From assembly GCA_043821285.1 (NCBI GenBank), contig JBDRCZ010000053.1, positions 1 through 36,614 on the forward strand: a stretch of DNA of 36,614 nt, in the 5' to 3' direction. The stretch comes from Candidatus Omnitrophota bacterium (GTDB lineage Bacteria; Omnitrophota; Gorgyraeia; B26-G9; JBDRCZ01). The notes beneath the pieces are model-generated. The model was not told where the DNA came from. It searched no databases and was given only the letters and a program-made list of their open reading frames with translations. A program made the position numbers and the translations under genes. Position 1 is the first letter of the stretch. Every line of letters starts with the position of its first letter. Shown one piece after another: positions 1 to 35,925 of the stretch.

Positions 1-1150
1 GTTGGCAATGGCGGTTCCTACCTTGGCAATATTTCTTACCTGACTGGTAAGATTCGCAGCCATAGTATTGACGTTATCTGTCAAGGCTTTCCATGTGCCG
101 GCTACCCCGGGAACAGCTGCCTGGCCGCCGAGCTTACCTTCAGTGCCGACTTCCTTGGCCACGCGCGTAACTTCGCCTCCGAACGCGTTTAAGTTATCCA
201 CCATCCGGTTGATTGTATCTTTGAGTTCCAATACTTCACCCGCCACTTCAACTGTGATCTTCTGAGACAGGTCTCCGTTGGCGACCGCGGTGGTAACATT
301 GGCAATATTCCTCACCTGGTTTGTCAGGTTCCCGGCCAATATGTTTACATTATCAGTCAGGTCCTTCCATGTCCCGGCTACCCCGGGCACAGTTGCCTGG
401 CCTCCAAGCTTACCGTCAGTACCTACTTCCTTGGCAACACGTGTAACCTCGTTGGCAAAAATATTAAGCGAGCCCACCATATTATTGATCGTATCTTTTA
501 ACTGCAGTATTTCTCCTTGCGCCTCAACTGTAATCTTCTGCGACAGGTCCCCTTTAGCTACCGCGGTCGTGACATTGGCGATATTCCTTACCTGGCTTGT
601 CAGGTTGGCAGCCATGGTGTTAACGTTATCGGTCAGGGCCTTCCATGTCCCGGCTACCCCTTCTACCTTTGCCTGGCCCCCGAGTTTACCTTCGGTGCCA
701 ACTTCCTTGGCCACACGCGTAACCTCGTTGGCAAATATGTTAAGTGCGTCTACCATATTATTAATCGTATCTTTTAACTGCAGTATTTCTCCTTGCGCCT
801 CAACTGTAATCTTCTGCGACAGGTCCCCTTTAGCTACCGCGGTCGTGACATTGGCAATATTCCTTACCTGGCTTGTCAGGTTGGCTGCTAAAGTATTAAC
901 GTTGTCCGTCAGATCCTTCCATGTCCCAGCCACCCCTTCTACCTTTGCCTGGCCGCCAAGTTTTCCATCAGTGCCAACTTCCTTGGCCACACGCGTAACC
1001 TCGCCTCCGAAACGGTTAAGAAGATCGACCATCCCGTTATATGATTCCGCAAGATCTCCAAAAATATCTTCTCTGCGGCTCTTAAGCTTCTTTGTCAGAT
1101 CCCCTTTTCGCACCGCCTCCATCGCCTCTAAAAGATCCCTTAACTGCTGA
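1..1150 (-). repeat. Intragenic tandem repeat of about 276 bp, at least four units, inside the poly-HAMP CDS. Two units are almost identical at the DNA level.
   Basis: Positions 481-620 and 757-897 differ at only 1-3 positions over about 130 nt (…attattgatcgtatcttttaactgcagtatttctccttgcgcctcaactgtaatcttctgcgacaggtcccctttagctaccgcggtcgtgacattggc…). The same periodicity is visible from position 1. Confidence 0.8.
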
Positions 1151-2329: not shown

Positions 2330-2445
2330 TAGATACCCACGCCTTTACAGGCGTGGTTCTTACTGTCTCAGGCTTTGCCTGTCCAGCAACTTCATTGCTG
2401 GAAACTGGCTCTCACCCCCGTCTTTACAGACGGGGAACTCCCGCT
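2330..2445. ncRNA. Candidate structured small RNA. Strand is undetermined, but a minus-strand terminator lies at 2148-2196.
   Basis: Four consecutive hairpins fall within about 100 nt of non-coding sequence. They are CCACGCC-TTTACA-GGCGTGG (2337-2356), CAGGC-TTT-GCCTG (about 2369-2381), CCAGCAA-CTTCA-TTGCTGG (2384-2402) and CCCCGTC-TTTACA-GACGGGG (2416-2435). Two of them share an identical TTTACA loop. The region is GC-richer than its flanks. Confidence 0.35.
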
Positions 2446-2966
2446 TTAATAGATTTTTCATTTCTACAGATCTCAACAACAGCTATTACTTTTTAAACCT
2501 TATCACCTCTTTAATTTTACAGCTTATTTCAAATAAAAAAATTCCTTCGGAATCTTTTTATCCATTTAAAAACCTTTCGTGTTCAAACCTTCCCTTAACA
2601 ATGAATTAAATATACCAATCTATACCCCAAATCCCGTGTTATCCATAGATTGAAAATCTTATTGTTTTCTATACGTTAAAAAATTTCTTTCACTATAATT
2701 ATTCTTGCTGTGCAAAAATATACTTAAGTATAATTATAGCATAGACAATAAATTTTTAGCAAGTATAAATTATTATCTTCGACAATAATTGGTGCAAAAT
2801 CTATATCCTTCGTGATCTTCGTGGTTCAAGTATTGTGTATTTTTTAACGCGGAACTATTACTAAGAATATAAAAATAAGAGTGATATGCAGATTAGATTT
2901 TACAGAAAAAAACGACTTGAGCTGGTCTTCTCTGGCAAGGCTTACCAAACAAACTTCTAAAGTTAG

Positions 2967-6545: not shown

Positions 6546-9247
6546 ATTTCTTTCGGTATTGGCAAACGGATTCTAAAAGTCGTTCCCCGTCCCACCTCAC
6601 TCTCAAAACTGATATCTCCCCGATGCGCTTTTATCACATTATAAACCAGCGGTAAACCTAATCCCGTGCCTTCATTCTTAGTGGTAAAAAAATGCTCAAA
6701 CACCTTTGCCTTATCCTCATCACCTATGCCCAAACCGGTATCCGCGATGTTTATATATACACTTTCGCCGTCATCTGCAGTGCTTACTTTAAGACAACCG
6801 CCACCAGGCATTGCCTCTTTGGCGTTATTAATTAGATTAATAATTGCATCATCTAACATCTGAAAATCTGCCAAAATATTCGGCAGGTCTTTTTTTAGAG
6901 CTATTTGAAAGTCTATGCCCGCGGCATGAAATTGCTCTTTATTAACGTTGAATATGGTATTAATTAAGCTGTTTAAATTTATACTTACAAACATTAATTC
7001 TTTCTTACGGGACAGGTTCAGTAATGCTGCGGTAACTTTAGATGCCCGCCGGCACTGCTCAAGTAATGTCTTGATTTTTGCCTTTTCTTCCTCATTTTTT
7101 ATGGACATCTCCAAAAGCTCTGCCCGTCCCTGAATAATCATCAGGGGATTATTAATCTGGTGAGCAAGTTCTGCGGCCATGCGTCCCAAGGTTGATAGTT
7201 TTTCCGCATGAAAAAGCGCCTTTTGTAACTCCTGCAGGCGTTCGGTTTCAAGTTTACGTGTGTTTATATCAACAACCATTGAACGCGACTCAACCACCCG
7301 GCCCAAAGCATCAAAAATCGGTCTGACACTTAAACTCACCCAGATAATTTTTCCATCTTTAGATTGCATCTGAAGTTCTTCATTATTTATACTTTCTCCA
7401 GATAAAAATCTATCAAATACCTCCTTTGCCTTCTTTTGGCCGGATACGCTATCGGCATAAAGTTCAACTATTGGCTTGGTCATCAGTTCCGATAGTGAGT
7501 AACCGGTTAATTCTACCGCCCGCCGGTTACATTGTCTAATCAATCCATTCCGGCCAATGCTAAAATATGCGCAAGGCGCAAAATCATAAAGATGGCGATA
7601 ACGCTCTTCACTTTCCGACAATGCCCGGCGCACCTCTACTATTTTTGTCACATTACGCATTGCCAAAATTACTCCGGTAAGCTGCCGCTTAATATCAAAA
7701 ACTGGGGAACCAATAATATCTAAATAAATTTCTTTTCCGCCAAATACATGTTTATGGGTAAGTTCACAAGTCTTACCGGTTTTAATAACATTAGATAAAA
7801 CACATCCCGCTCCTGTTTGATGACAGGGACGAGCAGCTCCATGCTGAATAAAATAGCATTTTTCCCCAAGCACCTGTTTACGGCGCATGCCTCTTTTTTT
7901 TAAAAAACATTCATTTACATCGACAATCTGATAATCCATGTCAACAACTAAAATATATTCATCAATCTGGTCAACCAAAGAGCGGTAATAACGCGTCAAC
8001 TCCCGCTGTTTATATTCTGCCTCTTCGAGGGCATGCTCTGCCTGCTTACGCTCAGTGATATCCATAGACATCCCGATTAACTCATCCCCATCAAGCACCG
8101 CACTCAAGAGCATGTTTTTCGTTCGGCCTTTTCCGGTGACAACCTCTACCTCAAAATTAGTTACTCTACCTTTTTTCTTAAGGATATTAAGAAAAACGTT
8201 CCGCCGGTTTAGGTCTTTATATATTGACCGCACATTAAACTGTAGCATTTCCTTAACCGAATTAAATTCCAGCAGGTTGCATAAGGCCTTATTTGCGTAA
8301 AGAACATTGCCCGCAATATCAGTAACATATATTCCCACCAGACTGTTATCTACCAGGTTCCGGTATTTTCGCTCCGAAGCTGCCAATCTTTTCTCTACCT
8401 GTTTACGCGCGGTAATGTCCAAACTCATTCCGGAAATGATATCTCCCTTAAGCGTCATATTCAAAAGCGCATTTTTGACCTCACCGGTCTTGGTAATAAT
8501 TTCAACTTCAAAATTAGCAACTTTGCCTTTTTTCTTAAGGATATCAATTATGGCCTTCCTTTGCATCTTATCTTTATATACGGACAGAGCACCTTGTTCG
8601 ATCATTTCCTTAGCTGATTTATAACCCATTAATGATACCGCGGCCTTATTTACATAAAAAATCTTACCAGTCAGGTCTGATTTAAATATCCCGACCAGGC
8701 TGTTATCAATTAAATCACGATATTGTTTCTCCGAATCTTTCAAAGCGGCTTCGGCCAGTTTACGTTCGGTAATATCGCGAAATATCCCCTGCAAAACCAC
8801 TCTCCCTCCAAGCTCATATAAATTGGCCATTATCGCAACATCCTTTATTTCCCGATCACTGGTCATCACCTGCGCCTCGAGCATCTGTCCTTCTTTTTCC
8901 TTAAGGTGTCTCTTGAAAGTTTGGCTGAATTTCTCTTTAATCTTCTCCGGAGGATGAAGAATCCGTTGATGTTGACCAATCATTTCTGCTTTCTTTCTTT
9001 TTAATAATCGTTCCGCAGCCCGGTTACAATCAAGCACGATCCCGGTGTTGGCATCGGCAATAAAAATCGCATCCAAGGCCTTTTCAAACTGAACGCGGTA
9101 TTTTTGTTCAGAATCTTCCAGTTTTTTTTCAACCTGCCTGCGCTGAGTAACATCCCGGACAATCCCTAAAATTGCCGGTTGCTGATTATAACTTATGGGG
9201 GTAGAATGCACCTCGATAAATTTCAATTTACCATCAACTGTCCGCAC
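6542..9247 (-). CDS. Multi-PAS sensor histidine kinase, main reading frame. It probably continues 5' into 9223..9531 across a frameshift.
   Basis: Several PAS-like repeats are present (…GIFRDITERK…, …DITARKQ…, …DITERKQ…). The H-box is ELAHQINNPLMII. HATPase motifs are present (DTGLGIGDED…GTGLGLPLVYNVIKAHRGDI). The product opens with the C-terminal half of a PAS domain. The ATGA overlaps the start of the downstream kinase at 6542-6545. Confidence 0.85.
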   Translation of the reverse strand: MRTVDGKLKFIEVHSTPISYNQQPAILGIVRDVTQRRQVEKKLEDSEQKYRVQFEKALDAIFIADANTGIVLDCNRAAERLLKRKKAEMIGQHQRILHPPEKIKEKFSQTFKRHLKEKEGQMLEAQVMTSDREIKDVAIMANLYELGGRVVLQGIFRDITERKLAEAALKDSEKQYRDLIDNSLVGIFKSDLTGKIFYVNKAAVSLMGYKSAKEMIEQGALSVYKDKMQRKAIIDILKKKGKVANFEVEIITKTGEVKNALLNMTLKGDIISGMSLDITARKQVEKRLAASERKYRNLVDNSLVGIYVTDIAGNVLYANKALCNLLEFNSVKEMLQFNVRSIYKDLNRRNVFLNILKKKGRVTNFEVEVVTGKGRTKNMLLSAVLDGDELIGMSMDITERKQAEHALEEAEYKQRELTRYYRSLVDQIDEYILVVDMDYQIVDVNECFLKKRGMRRKQVLGEKCYFIQHGAARPCHQTGAGCVLSNVIKTGKTCELTHKHVFGGKEIYLDIIGSPVFDIKRQLTGVILAMRNVTKIVEVRRALSESEERYRHLYDFAPCAYFSIGRNGLIRQCNRRAVELTGYSLSELMTKPIVELYADSVSGQKKAKEVFDRFLSGESINNEELQMQSKDGKIIWVSLSVRPIFDALGRVVESRSMVVDINTRKLETERLQELQKALFHAEKLSTLGRMAAELAHQINNPLMIIQGRAELLEMSIKNEEEKAKIKTLLEQCRRASKVTAALLNLSRKKELMFVSINLNSLINTIFNVNKEQFHAAGIDFQIALKKDLPNILADFQMLDDAIINLINNAKEAMPGGGCLKVSTADDGESVYINIADTGLGIGDEDKAKVFEHFFTTKNEGTGLGLPLVYNVIKAHRGDISFESEVGRGTTFRIRLPIPKEI

Positions 9248-10265: not shown

Positions 10266-10434
10266 AAAAGGGGACAGCTACCTTTTTAATTATTTCTTCG
10301 CCACGGACTTATACGGATGAAAAACACAGATTTTTTACAATCAAATCTTTTAACCTATTTTGACAGGATGAACAGGATTTATAAGATTTTAAATAATATG
10401 TGTTGATATCGTGTCAATCCTGTCTATATTCTTT

Positions 10435-10505
10435 TTTTAACCACCAATCGCGTAAACTGTCACAAATAAATATGCTCCATTCGTGTTATTCTGTGTTAGT
10501 TATGG
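10435..10505. repeat. Palindromic CACGAAT element copy, degenerate
   Basis: The left part is ttttaaccaccaatcgcgtaaactgtcacaaataaa. The right part is ccattcgtgttattctgtgttagttatgg. Confidence 0.6.
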
Positions 10506-10578
10506 CTTAAATATCTTTATCCGTGTTCAATCCGTGGCTGTATTTTTTTCTTTTTTTATCCGCAAAGCGTATAAATGC

Positions 10579-11382
10579 TTATTTTTGCGCAGTAAAAATA
10601 ACCTCAAAAACTATATTCTTAACCCAGCCCACCTTTTTATCTAAGCGTTCAACTTTGCTCCAGTCGTTATTACGTACCAATACCCGCACTTTCATTCCCT
10701 CCTCAAGAGTAAAATGCGTAGTTGCCCGGTCAAACGGCTCAAATTTCGCATCTGCCTTTTTGGAAATAATGATTGCTTCTTTCCCTAAGACAGAAATCCT
10801 CCTCTCTAGGAAAACCGCACTCAAGACAGAAAAAACGATTAAGATACTCAATAAAATTCTCGTATAGAGCCTGTGGGTTTTAAATACTATCCCCAAAATT
10901 ATAACCAGCACAAAAGCGACATAAATTAAGCATAAAAGAACCGTAATACCGTCAATTGTAAGCTGCGCATACAAATTATCCATAAACTGCAAAAGCCATG
11001 TTTTTTTCTCCTCTAAAGGGGGCACTTTAAGCAATGACCTTGCGTATTCATAATTTGACTGCAAATCCCGGTCCCTGGGGATTAACTGCTTTGCCCGTTC
11101 ATAATTTAAAATTGCCTGCCCCAGCACACCCTGTTTAAAATAACAATTACCCAAATTATAATACAGGCTGCCGCTTTCAAACCCCTTATCAAGTAAATTA
11201 CGATATGCGCTGGTTGCCTCAGCATATTTACCCTCTTCATAAAGTATATTTGCTTTATAAAACATGTATTCCGGGGTAAAAGCAGTATCTTCGGCAAACA
11301 AAACACCGGTATTTAGCAATAAGATACAAAACGCAAATATCAAAATTATCTTATGCATATTTTTGTCTTTCCAAGTAATCAA
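10579..11382 (-). CDS. BatE-like membrane protein (signal peptide, TPR, TM segments, C-terminal SH3-like region)
   Basis: It has a signal or anchor sequence. A TPR-like segment is present (YKANILYEEGKYAEATSAYRNLLDK…YYNLGNCYFKQG…). Central hydrophobic helices follow. Its position is last in the Bat-type gene order. Confidence 0.65.
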   Translation of the reverse strand: MITWKDKNMHKIILIFAFCILLLNTGVLFAEDTAFTPEYMFYKANILYEEGKYAEATSAYRNLLDKGFESGSLYYNLGNCYFKQGVLGQAILNYERAKQLIPRDRDLQSNYEYARSLLKVPPLEEKKTWLLQFMDNLYAQLTIDGITVLLCLIYVAFVLVIILGIVFKTHRLYTRILLSILIVFSVLSAVFLERRISVLGKEAIIISKKADAKFEPFDRATTHFTLEEGMKVRVLVRNNDWSKVERLDKKVGWVKNIVFEVIFTAQK

Positions 11383-14206: not shown

Positions 14207-14288
14207 TTTTAACCACTAATTACACTAATTGTCACGAATCGTTAATTCTTTTTTCATTCGTGTAAATCTGTGTTATTCGTGGTTAAAA
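14207..14288. repeat. Imperfect palindromic intergenic element (about 82 bp), the clearest copy of the CACGAAT-heptamer family
   Basis: The left arm is ttttaaccactaattacactaattgtcacgaatcg. The loop is ttaattcttttt. The right arm is tcattcgtgtaaatctgtgttattcgtggttaaaa. The arms are reverse complements apart from a few mismatches. Confidence 0.8.
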
Positions 14289-15336: not shown

Positions 15337-15433
15337 TTATTTTCCTTATCCTTTGTGTCTAACATAAAACACAGTTGCCCGGCACGCTTTCATAGCGGGT
15401 AACGGTTAATTGTAGTAGCTGGTTATATTCCTT

Positions 15434-15620
15434 TTTTAACCACCAATTGCACGAATTATCACGAATAATTTTTATTCTCACACGGAGTCGCAGAGTTCAC
15501 AGAGTTTTTTATCTTTTAACCACGAAAGTTACGAAATACACAAAAAAAATGCTTTTATTAAATGATTTTCTCATCCTCAACGTATTTTTAACTATTTCGT
15601 GCCTTTCGTGGTGAATAAAA
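15434..15620. repeat. Cluster of CACGAAT-family arms (two left arms and one right-arm-like segment)
   Basis: The segments are ttttaaccaccaattgcacgaattatcacgaataat (15434-15470), ttttaaccacgaaagttacgaaatacac (15515-15545) and ctatttcgtgcctttcgtggtgaat (about 15595-15620). Confidence 0.6.
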
Positions 15621-16821: not shown

Positions 16822-16905
16822 TTTCACCACTAATTACACGAATTGTCACGAATAAAATAAATATACCCTATTCGTGTAACTCTGTGTTATCCGTGGTTTA
16901 AAAAT
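16822..16905. repeat. Palindromic CACGAAT element copy
   Basis: The sequence is ccactaattacacgaattgtcacgaataaaataaatataccctattcgtgtaactctgtgttatccgtggtttaaaa. It has the same architecture as the 14207-14288 copy. Confidence 0.75.
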
Positions 16906-17212
16906 ATCTTTTAGTCTTATCTTTTTTATCCGCAGCTCTATTTTATTTTTTAGCTACGCTACACGGATAAAACACGGATTTTTTAATAATAAAATCTTAA
17001 ACTATTTTCTGACAAGATGAACACGATTTACAAGATTTTTAAATATATTTATTTTTATCCTTTTATCCTGTTTACCTCGTTAGAAAATGCCAACTTACCC
17101 TATTAAAAAAATAAACCCTTCCAACATGATTATTACAAAACGTTTTTACTGACAATGTTATCTTTATTATTTTCTAACGGGGTTTATCGTGTTAATCTTG
17201 TCTATGTTTTTT

Positions 17213-17303
17213 TTCATTCGTGTCAATTGGTGTTATTCGTGGTTAAAACGTTTTTAGTTTCGTCTTTTCTTATCCGTGTTCAATTCGTGTCTATCCGTGG
17301 TTC
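17213..17303. repeat. CACGAAT-family right arm plus the TCCGTGTTCAATYCGTG variant
   Basis: The sequence ttttcattcgtgtcaattggtgttattcgtggttaaaa is followed by tatccgtgttcaattcgtgtctatccgtggttctg. Confidence 0.65.
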
Positions 17304-17328
17304 TGTAATTGCATTTCGCGTTGTCAAT

Positions 17329-18514: not shown

Positions 18515-19568
18515 TTATATTGCGGTACCCAACCTGTCCTGAGTAAAACAAGGAGAAAATTTTAAAAGGTGTTGATTTTTGGTTAAATATTCCTTAACCT
18601 TTTCCCTCATATGCACATAACCTTGCGCCAAAAAACCTCCGGTTCCACAACAAGGATCATAAACCGTCTCACCAACGTTAGGATCAATAACCTTAACCAT
18701 TATGCGAATAACTTCTCGCGGAGTAAAAAATTGGCCTCCGTCATTATTCTTAGCGCCCATATTCAGAAGCAAACCTTCATAAACTTGAGACAAAGTAAAC
18801 ATATGCGTATCGTCAACCTGCTCAATGGAAAGTTGATTAATCTTATCTAAAATATCCCAAAGGTTTCTTTCGGTATCAATACCGGTTTTCTCCACCGAAG
18901 AGAATACCTCACTAATTACCTTTTGACGAGATGTTGCGCCAGTCCTTTTCTCTAATTCTCTTAAATGAAGAATAAGCTCGCCATTGACAAAAGACATAAA
19001 CCGTTCTATTTTTGCCCTGGGCAATTTTCTCTAAGACCGCGCGTATGGCAGCGTCTTGATAATAACGCCTACTTGCCTCGCCACGTGTATATGGAACCAG
19101 AAGAGGCTTTGTCTTTTCGCTATCAAGAGAAAACCCCATTCCTTTTTCGTAACGGGAGCGTAATTCCTCTGGGGTAGGAATTTTATCTATGACTAAGGGT
19201 TCAGATGTTTTGCCGGTAAAACTATCGTATTCTACAAATAAATCTCCGTTACAAGAAAAAACAAAAGGCACATTATTCAACCGTGCATATTTCTTGGCCT
19301 GTTCAAGACCTTTATCTACTGGCTCATCACTCTTTTTAGCTTCGATTAAAGCAATAGAAATTGGCTGAGAGCTAATATTGACCCGGATCCGCAACAGATA
19401 ATCGGTTCTCCCCTTTTGTTTACGCCGAGGCTGACCTTTAATAATTTCAACTCCTCTTTCAGTTTCTTCGCGCCTGATAAGGTCTTCAGTCCAACCTCTT
19501 TTATGAAGCGCTGAATCGATAAATTTTGCCCTGGTATCTGCTTCGCTCAAATATTCTGCGTTATTCAT
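18515..19568 (-). pseudogene. Remnant of a restriction-modification gene. An HsdR-N/Mrr-like nuclease N-domain is joined to the N-terminal part of an N6-adenine methyltransferase. It is frameshifted and truncated at the 3' end.
   Basis: ORF 18912..19568 reads MNNAEYLSEADTRAKFIDSALHKRGW…RRYYQDAAIRAVLEKIAQGKNR, an HsdR N-terminal signature. The overlapping ORF 18515..19024 (TTG start) reads …GGQFFTPREVIRIMVKVIDPNVGETVYDPCCGTGGFLAQ, which is MTase motifs X and I. It then stops. No NPPY motif or target-recognition domain follows. The two frames can be joined at the A5 run in GGCAAAAATAG. Confidence 0.6.
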
Positions 19569-19885
19569 CTTTTATCAATCCCTCATCCGCAAAACTATAA
19601 TAATTATCATCTCCGATTATAACGTGATCCAGATAATTATTTATTCGTCCTCTTTACTTATGATTTTTCCACCACAATACCGGTAGATATTCAATCCTAC
19701 ACAAGGTGCTGGTGGCGTTCCGGTTCGTTGTCCGGTTAATTTTGTGTTTACTTCAAGGCTTATGTTTGCCTTGCCTTCCAATGCATCGAAAAACCGCCAG
19801 CCGGATTCTTCCAATAACTTATTTTTTTATATGCGTGCTTTTGCCTCTTTTGCCATCCGCTATCTTCCATTCCAACAATTTTGGG

Positions 19886-20461
19886 TCAAAGCATATCCGA
19901 TAAATCTACGGGAGCACGCATCCCTGCTGTAGCTTCTTCTTTATCAAAATGCTCCGGCTCAAAATCTCCCGCCCATCCTTTCATTTCTTCATATTCTTCA
20001 TGTTTAGGGTCGGCGAGTATTTTAAGCAATTGGTAATATCCGGGTGTTGATCCACAATCTTCCGGTGGACACGCGCGGGCGCCGTCAATACAACAAGGAT
20101 ATTTCATTCCTTTCCGTACAGGCTCTATTGCTTCCAAGATTATCGTATGCTCCCAACTATCACCAAAGTCATATGTATAGCTGAGTTTTGTCTTATCCTT
20201 AGAAAAATAATCGCTGATTTTCTTATCCTTTTCATTCCATTGTGGCGGGTCTCCAAATTCACACGCTTCCTCGCTTGCATCGCCTATTCTGAAATTTCCG
20301 GCATTGAATTCATGTAAATGTGAATTTGTCCAGCCCATCGCTTCCTGTATCATAAGATGAAACTGATAGAACGTAATATCGCTCTTAACCTCTATCATTC
20401 TCCATAGTTGAGGTAAAATATCATCAAGAACAATCTTAAACCGAAATATTTGCTTTGCCAT
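19886..20461 (-). CDS. Plasmid pRiA4b ORF-3 family protein
   Basis: Family motifs are present: …LWRMIEVKSDITFYQFHLMIQEAMGWTNSHLHEF…YTYDFGDSWEHTIILE… and the C-terminal …CIDGARACPPEDCGSTPGYYQLL. An AAAAGGAGGTG ribosome-binding site is present. Confidence 0.75.
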   Translation of the reverse strand: MAKQIFRFKIVLDDILPQLWRMIEVKSDITFYQFHLMIQEAMGWTNSHLHEFNAGNFRIGDASEEACEFGDPPQWNEKDKKISDYFSKDKTKLSYTYDFGDSWEHTIILEAIEPVRKGMKYPCCIDGARACPPEDCGSTPGYYQLLKILADPKHEEYEEMKGWAGDFEPEHFDKEEATAGMRAPVDLSDML

Positions 20462-21778: not shown

Positions 21779-21876
21779 GACGCAAAGTTCGCAAAGATTT
21801 TTTAACTACAGATGATCGCCGATAAAAAAATACCGGTGATCACAGATTGTAAAACAACATTTAAGCATTTTTTTAG

Positions 21877-21972
21877 CCACGGATTCACACGGATAAACGA
21901 CAGACTTTTTAATAATCAATTTGTTTAACCTCATTTTTTATCAGTGTTCAATCCGTGAAAATCTGTGGTTTT
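21877..21972. repeat. CACGGAT-variant palindromic element
   Basis: The left part is ccacggattcacacggataaac. The right part is cagtgttcaatccgtgaaaatctgtgg, an inverted arrangement of the same heptamers. Confidence 0.65.
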
Positions 21973-22325
21973 GTCTTTTCTTTTACTTTGCAACACGTTG
22001 CATCATTTCTTGTAACCCAGATAAGAAAGAATCTATTTTCTAACAACAAATAGCACAAATATAAAATCTGATTTTATAATTTATTCATGTAAGAAGACCC
22101 AGCATTATTCGTTATTTTATCTTATTACAAATTAATGCGCAAGAAAAAATTTGGTAGGTGTGTATTTCTCCCTTGGAATTTTAATGCATATTCAGGACAC
22201 AATGTACATTAAAAAAGGAACTAAATGGCTGTTTGTATTTCTTCACCAGCCTTATGTAATTCTCCGATGGTGGGGGTTACTGGCTGTATAGTGCACTAAA
22301 GCAGGGTCTATATATTGTTTAACAG

Positions 22326-25663: not shown

Positions 25664-26152
25664 ATGTTATGTCCAATGTTTTTTGAGTTTCTAATTGACC
25701 TAATTGCTCTAATCTACTAGAAACTCAAAACCACAATTAAAATTTAGAGGTTTTTTTATTCTATTTTACCTTTTTACTTTTGACTTGTACCTTTAATTCA
25801 TTCGTGAAGATTTGTGTAATTCGTGGTTGAAAAATAAAAAATATAACTACTTTTCGACAAGATTTACCTCATAAGAAAACTTCACTTGACACTGTTTTCT
25901 TATACTTGGTCTATTTTCTTTAGCTTTGTTTTAAATATATTGCCAATAATTTTAAAATCTATTTAAAAAACTATTTTTAAAAGTATACCATATATTTCGG
26001 ATTTTTCAAGGGTTTGGCAAAATTTTTTTGGTAAAAGGTGTAAAAGGTTAGCTCTTATCTGAACGGCTAATTTCCTCATTCAGATTTTAGATCGTTTAAA
26101 GCCTGCGGAAATTTTTTCGTTCTTTTTTGATGGGAAATAAAATAAGACAAAA

Positions 26153-26232
26153 CCACGGATAAATACAGATTGGACACGAATAAAAAATGAGATCAAATCA
26201 TTAGCCTTTTAAAATCCGTGTTAATCCGTGGC
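26153..26232. repeat. CACGGAT/CACGAAT-variant palindromic element
   Basis: The sequence is ccacggataaatacagattggacacgaataaaa … aaaatccgtgttaatccgtggc. Confidence 0.6.
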
Positions 26233-26247
26233 TATATTCTCTTTTAA

Positions 26248-27294
26248 TTACTTTTCTGCCTGATCCACAGCTGCATCCGATTCTTTCGCAGGATTTTTAA
26301 CATCACTTTTTGGCAGCTGATAAAAAATCTCAACAATCTGCTCTTCCAGTGCCTTTTCCAGCAAAGACTGAGTAAGTGCCTGCTGTTTCTTCTGCCGGTA
26401 TTCATATTCCACCTGATTTTTTACCTCGTTAAACTCTTTTTGACGCTTTGTGGTTTTACCATCGTCTCCTTTAACCTCTTCGACATATTTATCTTTATTA
26501 GCATTATAATAAAGCTTGAGGTCATCCGGGGTAATTTTTAATTCCTTTTCGATTTCCTGTTTCAGCAGCTGCTCAACCGCAAACTGTTTTTTAACCTGCT
26601 CAAAAAACTCTCGCGCCGCAGTATTATTATCCAGTCCAAGGCGTTTTGCTTTTAAATACAACACCTCACTAGCCACATATTGCTTAATAAAATCATATCT
26701 TGCGCCCTCAGTCTCATAATTTTTCCTCAGCCACTCCGGCATCCGGTCCATGGCATTATTTATATCCGTCTCGGTAATCTCCTCATCACCGACCTTAGCA
26801 ATAATATTTCCCATTTTCTCTTCCGGTTTTTCTAAGGCAGTACGGGTTTTAAGTTCATACTGCGCCTGCGTAGTCATACCGGCCTTCTCCAGTGCCGCAA
26901 TAACCTTCTGATTTAACTCGGCAATAAAACCAGCATTTTTATCCAACATCTCCGCGCGAAAGTAATAACTCAAGGCCTTTTCATACTCATATAACTCCAG
27001 ATACAAATTACCGAGCAAATAAGCCGTCTTGGCTAATTCTTTTCTCTCTTTTCTCCCCGCTGCCGTTAAATAATCCTCCAGCGCCTGGGCCGCTTGTTTT
27101 TTTAGGCCTTTGACCATAAGCTGATTAGCATATTCAAGCTGGTCTTCGACTGACCAGTTTCCCGGTTGTCCAACCGGCAGAGAAATCCTGCCCGGAACCT
27201 GTAAAACTAAAACCGCCAAAACTACGATACCGATAACAATTATCATATTTAACACGGGGATTTTTTTCATCATCTCAGCGCAATCTCCTTTCAC
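26248..27294 (-). CDS. Membrane-anchored protein with TPR-like and SurA-N/PpiD-like chaperone-type regions
   Basis: An N-terminal TM (IIVIGIVVLAVLVLQV) is present. TPR-like helices follow (…AYLLGNLYLELYEYEKALSYYFRA…). The segment …ITPDDLKLYYNANKDKYVEE… is typical of SurA N-terminal-like domains. The gene overlaps the DUF58 gene by 20 nt. Confidence 0.6.
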   Translation of the reverse strand: MKGDCAEMMKKIPVLNMIIVIGIVVLAVLVLQVPGRISLPVGQPGNWSVEDQLEYANQLMVKGLKKQAAQALEDYLTAAGRKERKELAKTAYLLGNLYLELYEYEKALSYYFRAEMLDKNAGFIAELNQKVIAALEKAGMTTQAQYELKTRTALEKPEEKMGNIIAKVGDEEITETDINNAMDRMPEWLRKNYETEGARYDFIKQYVASEVLYLKAKRLGLDNNTAAREFFEQVKKQFAVEQLLKQEIEKELKITPDDLKLYYNANKDKYVEEVKGDDGKTTKRQKEFNEVKNQVEYEYRQKKQQALTQSLLEKALEEQIVEIFYQLPKSDVKNPAKESDAAVDQAEK

Positions 27295-28153
27295 GCATCT
27301 TAAAAAACTTCACCAATGCCTGGCTATAAGTTTTATCCGTACGCATATCAATATTATCCACATTTATCGAACGCAGTAACCGCTCTCTTTCTTTAAAACT
27401 TTGCATAGACTTACGGCTAAACTCAGCTCTTAAGGCCGCATCAGCAGTATCCAGCAAATAACCCTCTCCGGTTTCTGCATCTTCTAATTTAATCATCCCG
27501 ATATTTGGCAGCTCGAGCTCCCGCGGGTCAGTAATCGTTATTGCGACAATATCATGCCTTTTATTGGCAACGGACAATGCCTTTTTAAAATCCTTGGCAA
27601 AAAAATCCGAAATAAGGAAAGTCACGGTTTTACGTTTTGTTACCTTATTCAAATATTCCAAAGCCACTGGTATATCCGTACCAATGCCATCGGCCTTAAA
27701 ATAGAGCATTTCCCGGATAATCCTTAAGATATGGCGCAGTCCCTTACGCGGGGGAACAAATTTTTCTATGCGATCGGTAAAAATTATCAGTCCCACCTTA
27801 TCATTATTATGCCCTGCAGAAAACGCCAAAACCGAAGAAAGCTCAGCCGCCAACTGCTGCTTCAGCCGGTTAACCGTACCAAAGCGGCACGACCGCGACA
27901 TATCCAGCATGAGCATAACTGTTAGCTCTCTTTCCTCCATAAACTTTTTAATATAGGGGTGTCCCATACGCGCAGTAACATTCCAGTCTATGGAACGGAT
28001 CTCATCCCCTGGCTGATATTCTCGCACCTCTTCAAACTCCATACCTTTACCTTTAAAAACGCTATGGTACTGTCCGGCAAACACATCCGTAACCATACGG
28101 GAGGTAGTAATCTGAATCCGCCGTATATTTTTTAAAACTTCTTTGGGAATCAT
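27275..28153 (-). CDS. DUF58 protein, the usual partner of MoxR
   Basis: The signature …EEVREYQPGDEIRSIDWNVTARMGHPYIKKF…LMLDMSRSC… is present. Confidence 0.85.
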   Translation of the reverse strand: MIPKEVLKNIRRIQITTSRMVTDVFAGQYHSVFKGKGMEFEEVREYQPGDEIRSIDWNVTARMGHPYIKKFMEERELTVMLMLDMSRSCRFGTVNRLKQQLAAELSSVLAFSAGHNNDKVGLIIFTDRIEKFVPPRKGLRHILRIIREMLYFKADGIGTDIPVALEYLNKVTKRKTVTFLISDFFAKDFKKALSVANKRHDIVAITITDPRELELPNIGMIKLEDAETGEGYLLDTADAALRAEFSRKSMQSFKERERLLRSINVDNIDMRTDKTYSQALVKFFKMRERRLR

Positions 28154-28258
28154 ATATACCTATACTCTCCTATTATCTTCCTTTGAAAATTTCTAATTGC
28201 TTCAACCTGAGCGAGCCAGAACCAAACACAATCACGCCACTTTTGGCTCGTTCAGGTT

Positions 28259-28299
28259 GTTATATAAAAACCTACGGTTTTCAAGCTTTCCCTTTTATT
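28259..28299 (-). promoter_or_regulatory. Conserved 41-bp promoter/operator box upstream of the DUF58 gene, containing the palindrome AAAACCTACGGTTTT
   Basis: The plus-strand sequence is gttatataaaaacctacggttttcaagctttcccttttatt. It is identical to the box at 29446-29486 at 40 of 41 positions. In the minus sense it reads TTGAAAACCGTAGGTTTTTATATAAC. A 16-bp stem-loop (28203-28259) lies between the box and the ribosome-binding site. Confidence 0.5.
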
Positions 28300-28387
28300 T
28301 TTTTTCTGTGATTCAGTAAACGTAACGTTACGACATACAATATACAATATACGACATACAACTGTCTTCATCTGCGATCATCTGCGT

Positions 28388-29383
28388 TTAGGGAACTTCT
28401 ATCTCCTCAAAAATCCGTTTAATTATATCTTCGGAAGTTTTTTCCTCTGCCTCCGCTTCATAACTTACAATCACCCGATGGCGCAGCACATCCGGTCCGA
28501 TAGATTTCACATCCTGCGGAGTAACATAACCTCGTCCCTGAATAAACGCATAGGCCCGCGCCGCCACGGTCAAATAAATACTTGCCCGGGGCGAGGCACC
28601 ATACTGAATAAGCCCGGAGAGGTCATTTAATTTATATTTTTCCGGGGCACGGGTAGCAAAAACAATATTTAAAATATACTGTTCAACCTTTTCATCCATA
28701 TACACCTCATCAACCACCGCTCTGGCTCTGATAATATCTTCCGGTGCAACCACGGGATTTACCGCAATCTTTTTATCCGTAAAACTCATCATCTTCAAAA
28801 TCTTATGCTCCTCCTGCATACTGGGATAGGTTAAATTTATCTTGAGCATAAACCGGTCCACCTGTGCTTCCGGCAAGGGATAAGTACCTTCTTGCTCGAT
28901 AGGGTTTTGCGTCGCCATAACCAAAAACGGCTCATCGAGTTTAAAAGTATTCTCTCCGATCGTAATCTGTCTTTCCTGCATTGCTTCCAGCAATGCACTC
29001 TGCACCTTAGCTGGCGCGCGGTTTATCTCATCGGCCAAAATAATATTGGCAAATATCGGTCCTTTTTTCGTCGTAAAAGTTCCCTCTTTAGGATTATAAA
29101 TCAATGTCCCGATAATATCCGCGGGCAGCAAATCCGGGGTAAACTGCAATCTTTGGAATTTAGTTTTAACTGTTTGCGCAAGCGTTTTAATCGAGAGCGT
29201 TTTCGCCAGTCCCGGCACCCCTTCGACCAAAATATGGCCATTGGCCAAAAGCCCGATTAACAGCCTTTCAACCAAATAATCCTGTCCCACAATCACCTTC
29301 CTAATCTCAGCCAGCACTGCCTGCACAAACCCACTTTCATTCTTAATCTTCTCATTTATTGCAGTTATCCCTTTTCCAATCAT
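28388..29383 (-). CDS. moxR: MoxR-family AAA+ ATPase
   Basis: The Walker A motif is …ILVEGVPGLAKTLSIKTLAQ…. The signature …FQRLQFTPDLLPADIIGT… and Walker B …IILADEINRAP… are present. Confidence 0.9.
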   Translation of the reverse strand: MIGKGITAINEKIKNESGFVQAVLAEIRKVIVGQDYLVERLLIGLLANGHILVEGVPGLAKTLSIKTLAQTVKTKFQRLQFTPDLLPADIIGTLIYNPKEGTFTTKKGPIFANIILADEINRAPAKVQSALLEAMQERQITIGENTFKLDEPFLVMATQNPIEQEGTYPLPEAQVDRFMLKINLTYPSMQEEHKILKMMSFTDKKIAVNPVVAPEDIIRARAVVDEVYMDEKVEQYILNIVFATRAPEKYKLNDLSGLIQYGASPRASIYLTVAARAYAFIQGRGYVTPQDVKSIGPDVLRHRVIVSYEAEAEEKTSEDIIKRIFEEIEVP

Positions 29384-29445
29384 GATATTTCCCCTCCCTA
29401 CCTATCCGAGCAAGAACAAAAAAACTGTTCTTGCTCGTCTATCTT

Positions 29446-29486
29446 GTTATATAAAAACCTACGGTTTTCAAACTTTCCCTTTTATT
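29446..29486 (-). promoter_or_regulatory. Second copy of the conserved 41-bp promoter/operator box, upstream of moxR
   Basis: The plus-strand sequence is gttatataaaaacctacggttttcaaactttcccttttatt. A stem-loop CCGAGCAAGAACA/TGTTCTTGCTCG (29406-29437) lies between the box and the ribosome-binding site GGGAGGGG. Confidence 0.5.
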
Positions 29487-29962
29487 GTAGTTACAACATC
29501 GTAAATGTTTTTTAATATCTTCTACCACTATTTGCTGTCTGCGAATAAAACGCTTATAGATTAATATAACACAAGTATCCTAACCATGTAGTGCATATAG
29601 AAAATCTTGCAGCTTTAGTCTATATTCTATGGTCTACCTTTTGAAGTATTTTTATAATATAGTATAATAAAAAAATCAAAAAAATCAAGGGTTATAGTAA
29701 TTTTTTCGCAAAATAAAATCTATACGAGTTAATTTTTTGACATTAATATGGGTATGAATTTGCTGGCAACTATAACAGAGCACTTGCTTATTGCTGCTGG
29801 TTGAGTTTGATAATACCGGGAATTTTCATCTGGATAATAGCTTTTGTAATAGTATTCATTATGTGATTATTCTCTTCTATTTTTGTTCTTTTTCTTATAT
29901 TCTCTCTGTGAACTTTGTGTGCTCTGTGGTTAATTATTATTTTATTTTTTTAAGCTGTACTC

Positions 29963-30166
29963 TTACTCTGGTTCTTTTTTCGGTGGAACATTGGTTACTT
30001 TAAGACTTTCTACGATGCTATAAAAATTCTTAATGATATCATACCGGCCGATAATTCCCACCAATTTTGAGCCTTCGATTACTGGAAGGGTATGGATATT
30101 TTTATATTTAACCAGCACGATTATGTCGTTTAATTTTAACATATTACATCCCCATGACCCCTCCAA
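29963..30166 (-). CDS. Single CBS-motif fragment. It is possibly a gene remnant.
   Basis: The segment …LPVIEGSKLVGIIGRYDIIKNF… matches a single CBS motif. The ORF is only 67 aa and has no second CBS copy in frame. Confidence 0.3.
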   Translation of the reverse strand: MEGSWGCNMLKLNDIIVLVKYKNIHTLPVIEGSKLVGIIGRYDIIKNFYSIVESLKVTNVPPKKEPE

Positions 30167-30492
30167 AAATCATGGCGGGGAATTTAATCCGGCGGAAGGG
30201 ATACTCCCCATTTTCTGTTTTAAACATCAAACACAACCAATTAGGGCAATTAACAAAGTCCTCGTTAAAAATAGTTTTACCTGCGATATGAGTTGATAAT
30301 TTATTATACAAACCGGCAATATACGTACCGGGTAATAAATTTTTGAAGATAGGGACTCACAGCACGCACCTCTGGTACCAACATCACCATTGCCCAGTGT
30401 ACAACAGGGCCTCACGCAGGCTTTCTTCACCATGCTTAAACTGGCGATAAATCAACTTCCATGAAACGTATGTACTTTGTTTACGAATTTTC

Positions 30493-34509: not shown

Positions 34510-34758
34510 TCATCCCATAAACAAGGATTGTGTTTTTCTATTTTCTTCATATTCATTAATATTACTTATCGTAAATCCCCCAAGCATCCAAAGATTGTTC
34601 ATATGATTATTTATGGTTTTATAAGAATATTCCGATTTTAATAATTCCTCTACAAAAGGCCTCATCAATTGTATTGGTCTTTGACCGTATTCTATATCAT
34701 CCTTAAATCCTGCCCAAGAATCGGGCCATTCATTAATTTTATCAATATTTATTTTCAT
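34510..34758 (-). CDS. Hypothetical small protein (82 aa) of unrecognised family
   Basis: Its start abuts a copy of the ~180-bp repeat that also precedes the DUF4160 gene. No ribosome-binding site is visible. Confidence 0.3.
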   Translation of the reverse strand: MKINIDKINEWPDSWAGFKDDIEYGQRPIQLMRPFVEELLKSEYSYKTINNHMNNLWMLGGFTISNINEYEENRKTQSLFMG

Positions 34759-34965
34759 AAAATGAAAATAACCAATTTGAAAACCACCAAGTTTTTAAAT
34801 TCTGTTCATTGTTTTATTAGAATCTATTTTACCCCAGATTTTACATGTTTCACAAGTAATATCTGCAGGGGGTGCCGTTTAGGGTATTATATTTGTGTCT
34901 GTTTGTCGATAGAAATGTAAAAACAGGGTGGTTAAAATAAGGAAGGAAGAACGAGACTACTTTCG
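34759..34965. repeat. Copy 1 of a ~180-bp dispersed direct repeat (blocks A and B)
   Basis: Block A is ataaccaatttgaaaaccaccaagtttttaaattctgttcattgttttattagaatctatt. Block B is tttgtcgatagaaatgtaaaaacagggtggttaaaataaggaaggaagaacgagactactttcgaatt. Both blocks recur at 35757-35925 with about 90% identity. Confidence 0.8.
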
Positions 34966-35205
34966 AATTCCCCTCCTCAGAAAAACAAGTGATGTTTGGT
35001 CGCTCTATTTTGTTTAGCCATGCTCGTATAATTTTCTTTAGGATAATAAAAGCTCAGTTGCCGAAAGTTGTGGTCAGCAAATCTGATTGTCTTTTGTTTT
35101 ATCACTACTATTTAAACGTAAATATATTATCATCTTGAGTCAAAGTCATATATTCCCACATTTCATTTTGTTGTAGCCATAATCGTATTAAACACTTTAA
35201 TCGTT

Positions 35206-35436
35206 TTAATTGCTTTCGATATACAATGTGTCCGGACAAATATCCTGACCATGAGGCCAAGATATCGTTCCCATAAAAGGTTTTACTCGTTTAAAATATG
35301 AAAAATTGTTTAATTCCTTAAATACGCCAAATTTAAGATATGGCGTCATATTAAATATTTTTTTTTCACCGTTTGTAAATTCAATCGTTAGTCTAAAATT
35401 TTCATTTGGCGTAACATTTTTAACTCTCGGGTTCAT
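35206..35436 (-). CDS. DUF2442 family protein
   Basis: The family pattern V.P.ENY.L.V.F.NGE…PYL…W is matched by …VTPNENFRLTIEFTNGEKKIFNMTPYLKFGVF…ISWPHGQDICPDTLY. Confidence 0.75.
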   Translation of the reverse strand: MNPRVKNVTPNENFRLTIEFTNGEKKIFNMTPYLKFGVFKELNNFSYFKRVKPFMGTISWPHGQDICPDTLYIESN

Positions 35437-35441
35437 TTTTA

Positions 35442-35711
35442 TTACCTCAATGGTTCGATCGGGAAAGGGTGTTCTCCCTTTACCGCCAATTCCCAGTCCG
35501 CCATAAGATCATCTTTGTGAATTTCAATCCACGCTTGTATTAGTTTTAACTTGCTTGTTTTTAGCTCACCTTCAAGGATTTCTCCTTCCGGTATGCTAAT
35601 TACCGCTTCCTGATCTTGATACTTGACATGCAAATGGGGCTTTTTATGTTTTTTATTATCAATAAAAAACATCATTATGATAATACCATAAAACATACTA
35701 ATTACCGGCAT
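35442..35711 (-). CDS. DUF4160 family protein
   Basis: The translation MPVISMFYGIIIMMFFIDNKKHKKPHLHVKYQDQEAVISIPEGEILEGELKTSKLKLIQAWIEIHKDDLMADWELAVKGEHP matches the canonical DUF4160 N-terminus. An AAGGAGAG ribosome-binding site is present. The gene lies 5 nt upstream of the DUF2442 gene. Confidence 0.75.
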   Translation of the reverse strand: MPVISMFYGIIIMMFFIDNKKHKKPHLHVKYQDQEAVISIPEGEILEGELKTSKLKLIQAWIEIHKDDLMADWELAVKGEHPFPIEPLR

Positions 35712-35756
35712 AATATTCTCTCCTTATTACTCTATTTTACCATTTTTTAACGATAA

Positions 35757-35925
35757 AATAACCAATTTGAAAACCGCTAGGTTTTCAAATTCTGTTCATT
35801 ATTTTGTTAGATTCTATTATATTATTATATTACTTTTTTGTCTATTTGTCGATAGAAATATAAAAACAGGGTGGTTAAAACAAGGAAGGAAGAACGGGAC
35901 TATTTTCGAATTTCGACAAGCTGAC
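35757..35925. repeat. Copy 2 of the ~180-bp direct repeat, covering the promoter region of the DUF4160-DUF2442 operon
   Basis: Blocks A and B are conserved. The spacer between them is shorter (about 25 bp versus about 70 bp). Confidence 0.8.

Follow-up and report, generated by a model that had tools for sequence, protein, structure and literature searches.

The moxR-DUF58 locus and its two box copies

The window analysed here is the whole of a 36.6-kb contig (36,614 nucleotides, nt) from a metagenome-assembled genome (MAG) of Candidatus (Ca.) Omnitrophota, and the element in question is a short repeat, composed of a 41-nt box and a long hairpin, that stands before two adjacent genes of a Bat-type operon. 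The operon is headed by moxR (28388..29383, minus strand), which encodes an AAA_3/AAA_lid_2 ATPase and is its first gene, and by a DUF58/VWA_2 gene (27275..28153, minus strand), both assigned by Pfam scan. An exact look-up of the window MoxR protein found no record. Box copy W1 (29446..29486, minus strand) lies upstream of moxR, at the gene-proximal end of a 1109-nt spacer, and box copy W2 (28259..28299, minus strand) lies upstream of the DUF58 gene. The covariance model R1 scores them at 56.7 bits (E = 1e-9) and 53.2 bits, respectively, and they are direct rather than inverted repeats. An original prediction, made from the letters of this DNA, described the boxes as near-identical, as sharing a perfect palindrome and as each followed by a stem-loop, and all three statements are confirmed. 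The boxes are equal at 40 of 41 bases, with none expected in shuffles; the palindrome AAAACC-N3-GGTTTT is exact in both; and the predicted folds of the stem-loops beat shuffles with z = -5.4 on the moxR side and z = -2.7 on the DUF58 side.

The box contains a 28-nt core, defined as GGGAAAGTT-TGAAAACC-GTA-GGTTTTTA, which consists of GGGAAAG, 3 nt, and an 8-bp hairpin or palindrome. The W1 core GGGAAAGTTTGAAAACCGTAGGTTTTTA (29479..29452) matches this 28-mer at 28/28 positions and the W2 core (28292..28265) at 27/28. The segment TGAAAACC begins 87 nt before the moxR ATG in W1 and 130 nt before the DUF58 ATG in W2.

Both long hairpins were delimited by fold prediction and alignment. The W1 hairpin (29399..29445, minus strand) has a perfect inner stem of 12-13 bp at 29407-29437 and is directly followed by the moxR Shine-Dalgarno (SD) sequence GGGAGGGG. 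The W2 hairpin (28204..28258, minus strand) pairs AACCTGAACGAGCCAAAAG with GTTCTGGCTCGCTCAGGTT across a loop, in an interrupted stem of ~17 bp. These hairpins had been considered different but structurally equivalent. A stem-loop does follow each box, but the two are homologous and not merely equivalent, because the repeat finder traces the match of the two copies beyond the box for another 18 nt of the 5' arm (88% over 59 nt). The box is conserved at 40/41 positions whereas the hairpin arms agree at only 26/38 (12/19 and 14/19, i.e., 68%), which supports the box as a sequence-constrained cis element 5' of genes. The chance of 40/41 identity in the box at the arms' rate of divergence is ~3e-6, by a hand binomial estimate rather than a tool output.

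An attenuator had also been suggested for these hairpins. No U-tract follows them on the gene strand at W1 or W2, which makes an intrinsic-terminator attenuator unlikely. Terminator-like calls are likewise absent from the minus strand at either hairpin, and the W1 stem is called terminator-like on the plus strand only, antisense to the genes. Rfam gave no match at the gathering threshold in the whole window, and at E up to 10 it returned only sub-threshold, chance-level matches in the window, L006 and L014.

The same element in Ca. Scalindua

The exact 21-mer TTGAAAACCGTAGGTTTTTAT occurs at just 4 loci in 185,579 species-representative genomes, a collection that excludes the window's source genome, and all four are in two Ca. 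Scalindua MAGs, Maj_2_bin.27 and SCAELEC01. Six nt after the 21-mer, three of the four loci carry a W2-type long hairpin, AACCTGnCCGAGCCAGAAC - loop - GTTCTGGCTCGGnCAGGTT; L007, the fourth, has a decayed 5' arm. The 3' arm of the W2 hairpin matches the Scalindua copies at 17/19 positions. The W1 hairpin is homologous to the same AACCTG..CAGGTT hairpin, but its loop is short and its outer stem decayed. In W1 and in the L007 copy the 3' arm and the SD of the gene adjoin directly. The hairpins ahead of the Scalindua copies bear no relation to the long one downstream, and among the sequences examined the long hairpin was never seen without the box. Judging by these alignments, box and hairpin are one element of ~100 nt, of which six full copies are known. 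A 19-bp helix on the six-copy alignment has 88.6% of its cells paired and four pairs altered on both sides, whereas control versions shifted by 1-3 columns pair at just 27-50%; retention of pairing through compensatory changes is thus supported. Spurious open reading frames (ORFs) spanning the element were searched to gather extra copies and gave no candidates. In viral contigs, one phage family has the 11-bp inner stem alone, which was judged coincidental.

Three of the four Scalindua copies lie ahead of co-oriented genes, namely an endonuclease IV-like gene (AP_endonuc_2, +99), a rubredoxin gene (+119) and flgM (+303). An oxidative-stress regulon composed of the Bat operon, rubredoxin and endonuclease IV was considered and dropped, since other copies precede flgM or tnpA, or face yggT.

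The 28-nt core in IS200-type insertion sequences

A metagenome scan with the 19-nt palindrome found 14 loci, most of which share the upstream bases GGGAAAGT(T), which were not part of the query. Neither the arms nor GGRAAG vary among the aligned copies (15 independent copies in alignment A2); the loop reads GTA, ATA, TAA, GTATA or GCTA, and one pair is either G.T or G-C. In addition to the Omnitrophota/Scalindua element, the core is found in IS200-type insertion sequences (IS), in miniatures that lack tnpA, and in a giant-virus-like contig. The contigs L017, L019 and L021 break within an IS200-type element in which the left-end hairpin comes first, then the core and then the tnpA ATG; an IS of this arrangement is present in 3 copies on the Legionella longbeachae plasmid NZ_CP020895.2 (L024). 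In six TnpA lineages (L019, L033, L039, L040, L041, and L024) the core stands 9-13 nt past the left-end hairpin, and within the IS200 clade it matches at 25-28/28 positions. The TnpA clade that carries it is very large, with 3964 homologues at E <= 1e-30. Two tnpA-less miniatures also have the core, L029 (left hairpin - box - right hairpin) and L013. The window box itself has the GGRAAG, the 3 nt and the TGAAAACC-loop-GGTTTTY hairpin by which the left-end box of this clade is defined. More distant IS200 elements, from Nitrosomonas, Synechocystis, Piscirickettsia and Megaera, have the end hairpins and lack the box. In a blastn search of the element against plasmids and phages the sole meaningful match was the box of the Legionella IS, an IS that E. 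coli genomes do not have, and a literature search for the element sequence found nothing relevant. Taken as a whole, the window element is very probably a dispersed, IS200-related repeat.

In the Legionella-type IS lineage (L041-L050, L024; P0217, P0218, P0224), the TTG of the box is in frame with tnpA, and gene callers add a 12-residue N-terminal extension (MKTIGFRVKLLR-MTLKR...) to TnpA. In other lineages the TTG frame is off by +1 or -1, and in L019 a +1 shift at UUU-UAA would restore a similar extension. The in-frame extension may be due to chance.

The giant-virus-like contig carries the core singly, inside a tandem repeat of 317 nt, and as a 3x42-nt array (L014 3592-3717) that precedes a gene by ~140 nt. 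The giant-virus-like traits of L014/L020 are an XRN_M domain, the motif AAAATTGA before a gene, and dozens of perfect tandem repeats inside and outside genes.

Insertion into a decaying operon

The moxR-DUF58 spacer of the window (28154..28387, minus strand) measures 234 nt and holds short direct repeats together with W2 and its hairpin. Omnitrophota relatives with 70-77% DUF58 identity have a compact operon, with a moxR-DUF58 gap of 6, 44, 48 or 122 nt, and the box was not found in them. The Bat operon of the window is split by long spacers that contain other palindromic repeats, fragments of restriction-modification genes and a PRiA4_ORF3 gene. Since the relatives are compact and boxless while the window operon is broken up, the box-hairpin units are insertions into a decaying locus. 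These sequence comparisons establish that the repeat forms a family, that its core is homologous to the IS segment and that it is an insertion when measured against the relatives; they also establish its pattern of conservation.

The spacers of the Bat operon have further features of their own. A second, unrelated family of long imperfect palindromic repeats is built of CACGAAT/CACGGAT/CACAGAT heptads and has TTTAACCAC ends, for example TTTAACCACGAATAACACAGATTTACACGAATG...CGATTCGTGACAATTAGTGTAATTAGTGGTTAAA. Its sites are 10420-10620, 14208-14288, 15419-15545, 16822-16993, 17209-17306, 21874-21982, 25793-25832, and 26139-26234; they occupy nearly every spacer of the operon, and such spacers are missing from the relatives. 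At 18515-20461 an N6_Mtase piece, an HSDR_N piece and the PRiA4_ORF3 gene stand between bat genes, where the operon is contiguous in the relatives L051 and L052. The 1.1-kb spacer upstream of moxR is itself downstream of a HAD/trehalose-phosphatase gene. By eye, it seems to contain frameshifted debris of a GH65-type phosphorylase gene (29700-30492, minus strand) and a short CBS-like ORF (30433..30227). In the relative L051, moxR is immediately preceded by a tRNA-like sequence and a fragment of a Phage_integrase gene (8832-8959), an arrangement that hints at the operon head as a recurrent insertion point. At the far end of the window, positions 1-1150 comprise ~4 tandem copies of a 276-nt unit (72-79% identity), partly within ORF 278..1150, which has no significant Pfam match.

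Further copies in the window

The two boxes had been thought to have no counterpart elsewhere in the window, but a 28-mer scan and the covariance model give three more sites. For the pattern GAAAACC-N3-5-GGTTTT, 0.01 sites would be expected in the window and 3 are present. W3 (2564..2598, minus strand; E = 4e-4) is a diverged box, AAGGGAAGGTTTGAACACGAAAGGTTTTTAA, that has lost the palindrome and is followed by a small terminator-like hairpin, GATTCCGAAGGAATTTTTTT. The second site is a perfect 12-4-12 palindrome, AATTTGAAAACCGCTAGGTTTTCAAATT (35764..35791, belonging to the repeat pair D7/D8; covariance-model match 35757-35790, E = 6e-4), whose arms are those of the IS-type box with one extra loop base and which sits 53 nt upstream of a DUF4160 gene (35711..35442). 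Its degenerate twin, AATTTGAAAACCACCAAGTTTTTAAATT (34774..34801; weak covariance-model match 34767-34800, E = 0.22), sits 16 nt upstream of ORF 34758..34510. The well-preserved copies of the window stand 16-130 nt upstream of start codons.

The last two sites belong to a ~200-nt module duplicated at 34765-34969 and 35755-35912 (repeats D8 and D7, 88-91% identity), each copy of which holds the TTTGAAAACC..GGTTTTCAAA palindrome. The modules are ahead of two small minus-strand operons, one with ORF 34758..34510 and the other with the DUF4160 gene (35711..35442) and ORF 35436..35206, which by eye is DUF2442-like. Downstream of W3 and upstream of a parA-like gene, 2334-2443 (minus strand) contains three adjoining hairpins, two of which share the same UGUAAA loop on different stems (CCCCGUC-UGUAAA-GACGGGG and CCACGCC-UGUAAA-GGCGUGG), and a (CATA)n run follows at ~2261-2291. 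This region resembles a structured RNA or a protein-binding array, and it has no Rfam match.

A possible promoter and leader cassette

A sigma-70-type promoter has 16-18 nt between its -35 and -10 hexamers and carries A2 and T6 in the latter. In the IS lineages L039, L019 and L033 the sigma-70 scanner calls TTGAAA-16/18-TATATT/TAAAAT/TAATAT at 9-10/12 matches. By eye, all six IS lineages have a -10-like hexamer 16-18 nt after TTGAAA, some of them under the scanner threshold, and in L033, whose loop is 2 nt longer, the spacer is still 18 nt. These -10-like hexamers end 6-9 nt before the tnpA start codon, and no SD is present. We infer a promoter whose spacer contains the palindrome and whose tnpA mRNA would be leaderless or nearly so. 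Extracytoplasmic function (ECF), sigma-54 and sigma-28 promoters, compared by eye with the consensus, do not fit in spacing or context.

On this footing the reading that we favour, tentatively as far as function is concerned, is that W1, W2 and their hairpins form a promoter/leader cassette derived from a mobile element and inserted in the decaying Bat operon. According to this proposal, two ~100-nt box-hairpin repeats of mobile-element origin have inserted into the moxR-DUF58-batA... operon. Their 28-nt core is homologous to the IS200-clade segment between the left-end hairpin and the tnpA start, which supplies the -35 element (TTGAAA) and the spacer of the predicted transposase promoter. The box would attract RNA polymerase, perhaps weakly or assisted by a palindrome-reading factor, and transcription would begin at or just within the long palindrome, so that the mRNA would start with a stable 5' stem-loop just before the ribosome-binding site. 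moxR would gain a start site, its former upstream region being gene debris now, and the DUF58 gene with the downstream bat genes would gain an internal start site after the insertion had split the operon. The promoter activity, the transcription start and the stabilising role of the hairpin are what we infer from sequence.

Several observations weigh against this proposal. The original prediction took TTGAAA as a -35-like hexamer, and it scores as a -35 in the IS homologues; in the window, however, the scanner calls neither W1 nor W2, and no acceptable -10 lies at 16-18 nt. The best hexamers there are TAACAA/TACAAC at 16-17 nt or TATAAC at 14 nt, which are without T at position 6. The foot of the long hairpin takes the place of the -10 in the window and Scalindua copies, so that stand-alone promoter activity of the window box is doubtful. 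The scanner does find promoter-like sites further upstream, at 29688..29661 for W1 and at 28368..28339 for W2. Of the Scalindua copies, L009 and a yggT gene point towards each other, and L010 is antisense between two genes. The array of the giant-virus-like contig retains GGGAAAG and the palindrome but not TTGAAA, and the tnpA-less mini elements retain the box with nothing to express. Moreover, if transcription began within the 5' arm, the compensatory changes of the outer stem would have no explanation at the RNA level.

Alternative explanations

The strongest alternative, itself doubtful, is a selfish or neutral repeat with no regulatory role, which would be either a remnant of an IS200-type left end or a mobile element that has decayed or is non-autonomous. 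The hairpins would then be DNA-level features kept by propagation of the element or by templated palindrome repair. The dispersal across phyla, the tie to an IS clade with thousands of metagenome copies, the tnpA-less mini elements that carry the box, and the abundance of other palindromic repeats and gene fragments in the window all agree with this explanation, as do the lack of a usable -10 in the window and the L009 and L010 copies outside promoter positions. However, a repeat without a role does not readily account for a box that stayed 40/41 identical while the adjoining arms drifted to 68%, or for the gene-proximal and co-oriented position of most copies. Its means of spread is also unexplained, because the element lacks the IS200 end hairpins that the transposase requires and the window has no TnpA gene.

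An RNA-level element is an unlikely explanation. In this case box and hairpin would be transcribed from an upstream start as part of the 5' untranslated region (UTR) or intercistronic RNA, and would serve either as a processing or stability determinant similar to a repetitive extragenic palindromic (REP) sequence or as a leader with an SD-like GGGAAAG and a mini-ORF, TTG-AAA-ACC-GTA-GGT-TTT (MKTVGF..). The promoter-like sites upstream of both boxes would allow such a transcript, and the entire 19-bp stem, including its outer part, has compensatory changes and G-U pairs. In addition, GGGAAAG varies among purines only, the base before TGAAAACC yields TTG, ATG or GTG in all matches, and the long 5'-UTR stem-loop of Salmonella IS200 is known to control tnpA translation (PMC4513863). 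On the contrary, the mini-ORF is 3-10 codons in some copies and 30 or more in others and takes three frames relative to tnpA, and MKTVGF as a conserved leader peptide was rejected for this variation in length and frame. The SDs of moxR and the DUF58 gene are uncovered by the hairpins in the predicted folds, and neither a gene-strand U-tract nor a match to an Rfam family was found.

A dedicated operator, at which a repressor or activator would co-regulate moxR and the DUF58 gene with the palindrome as its dimer site, was the original proposal and is now improbable. The conserved palindrome does overlap the -35-like hexamer, the same arms stand upstream of two other small operons of the window, and the tandem array of L014 upstream of a gene resembles an array of binding sites. 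However, the centre of the palindrome is 3, 4 or 5 nt in homologues with identical arms, and a variable loop of this kind argues against a rigid dimeric operator. The box has proved to be part of a larger dispersed repeat, the very finding that the prediction had named as fatal to it, shared with Scalindua, IS200-type IS, miniatures and the giant-virus-like contig, in unrelated phyla and beside unrelated genes. Dedicated control of moxR and DUF58 is further disfavoured by the relatives, which have neither the box nor the long moxR-DUF58 spacer, and no candidate regulator is linked to the box. DUF4160/DUF2442 proteins as readers of the palindrome are not supported, since operons for them in other genomes (Shewanella, Nitrosospira and Francisella plasmids) are without it.

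The crossover site hixL of a serine DNA invertase reads TTCTTGAAAACC-AA-GGTTTTTGATAA, with arms nearly equal to those of the box. A hix/gix-like site, for which the shared TTGAAAACC and GGTTTTT speak, is nevertheless scarcely credible and was rejected, since the centre is 3-5 nt and not 2, W1 and W2 are direct repeats, and GGGAAAG has no hix counterpart; the Pfam scan of window ORFs found no recombinase domain. A hammerhead ribozyme, a selenocysteine insertion sequence (SECIS), a -1 frameshift site (GGGAAAG with hairpin), a dif/Xer site and an integron attC site, each compared by eye with the consensus, do not fit in spacing or context.

Implications

A bolder idea, which we hold to be rather unlikely, is that the 28-nt core (GGGAAAG with the TGAAAACC/GGTTTTY hairpin) acts by itself as a cis signal and is read by a single conserved molecule. 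A widespread protein, or a factor associated with the polymerase, could be that molecule if it recognised a small hairpin, of DNA or RNA, beside a purine tract. Such a reader would keep the core nearly unchanged in the IS200 clade, its tnpA-less derivatives, the Omnitrophota/Scalindua element and the giant-virus-like contig, and the box-hairpin would represent a novel type of non-autonomous element, one through which a regulated start site passes from phylum to phylum. As a motif with an invariant core, a variable loop and no known reader, the 28 nt are small, concrete and testable.

The distribution of the core implies that a short piece of an IS expression region can travel between Omnitrophota, Planctomycetota, Gammaproteobacteria, a contig similar to the candidate phyla radiation (CPR) and a giant-virus-like contig. 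Such a piece can land ahead of ordinary genes and split, and perhaps re-wire, a conserved operon. For annotators the case calls for caution, as near-identical "operators" before neighbouring genes may be repeat insertions and not a regulon.

Comparison with known systems

Salmonella IS200: The left end of this element combines a weak promoter with a hairpin terminator and a long stem-loop in the 5' UTR (PMC4513863). The window element resembles it in having a short element and then a long stem-loop just before SD and ATG (PMC4513863). With the IS200 clade described here it shares the 28-nt core, which corresponds to the segment from left-end hairpin to tnpA (25-28/28). In contrast, the long AACCTG..CAGGTT hairpin of the window is absent from the IS copies seen.

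Palindrome-associated transposable elements (PATEs): These are tnpA-less derivatives of IS200/IS605 (PMC3119063, PMC7290912). L029 and L013 are such miniatures with the box, and the window element is likewise short, non-coding, intergenic and multi-copy. However, a PATE has matching left- and right-end hairpins, whereas the window/Scalindua element has one small and one long, unrelated hairpin.

Borrelia IS605 stem-loops: In Borrelia, IS605 stem-loops persist beside lipoprotein genes (PMC2775950). As in the window, end pieces of IS200/IS605 outlast the transposase, are linked to genes and are conserved with G-U pairs. The Borrelia stem-loops differ in lying at gene 3' ends and in deriving from transposase-binding hairpins, while the present element has a promoter-side box and most of its copies are 5' of genes.

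Correia and REP sequences: Correia elements of Neisseria and REP sequences or bacterial interspersed mosaic elements (BIMEs) of enterobacteria are small intergenic palindromic repeats that can bring promoters or mRNA hairpins affecting their neighbours. Correia elements have terminal inverted repeats and TA duplications, and REPs, which run to hundreds of copies with a GTAG head beside an imperfect palindrome, are tied to REP-associated tyrosine transposases (RAYTs). Their sequences are unrelated to the window element, in which neither terminal inverted repeats with TA duplication nor a link to RAYT was found. In W1 and W2 the small hairpin does contain a REP-like GTAG, in its loop and stem, but it is not kept in homologues, whose loops are ATA, TAA or GTATA.

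Miniature inverted-repeat transposable elements (MITEs): A MITE has an inverted repeat at either end and a duplicated target site. In the window element the inverted repeat is internal, formed by the long hairpin, and the box lies outside it. No target-site duplication is visible by eye at the borders of W1, W2 or the Scalindua copies, for which the copies are few and the ends not fixed.

Placement of the window element: None of the 30 window ORFs scanned against Pfam has a Y1_Tnp domain (tnpA), and tblastn of the L019 TnpA against the window gave a best E of 0.075. With up to 3 mismatches allowed for CCCCGYGGCTTGCCRCGG and up to 2 for GAGGCTCTGCCTC, these end hairpins of the clade gave no match in the window. 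Since it has neither a TnpA gene nor left- and right-end hairpins, the window element belongs to neither the IS nor the PATE class; we rate it as an IS-derived intergenic repeat.

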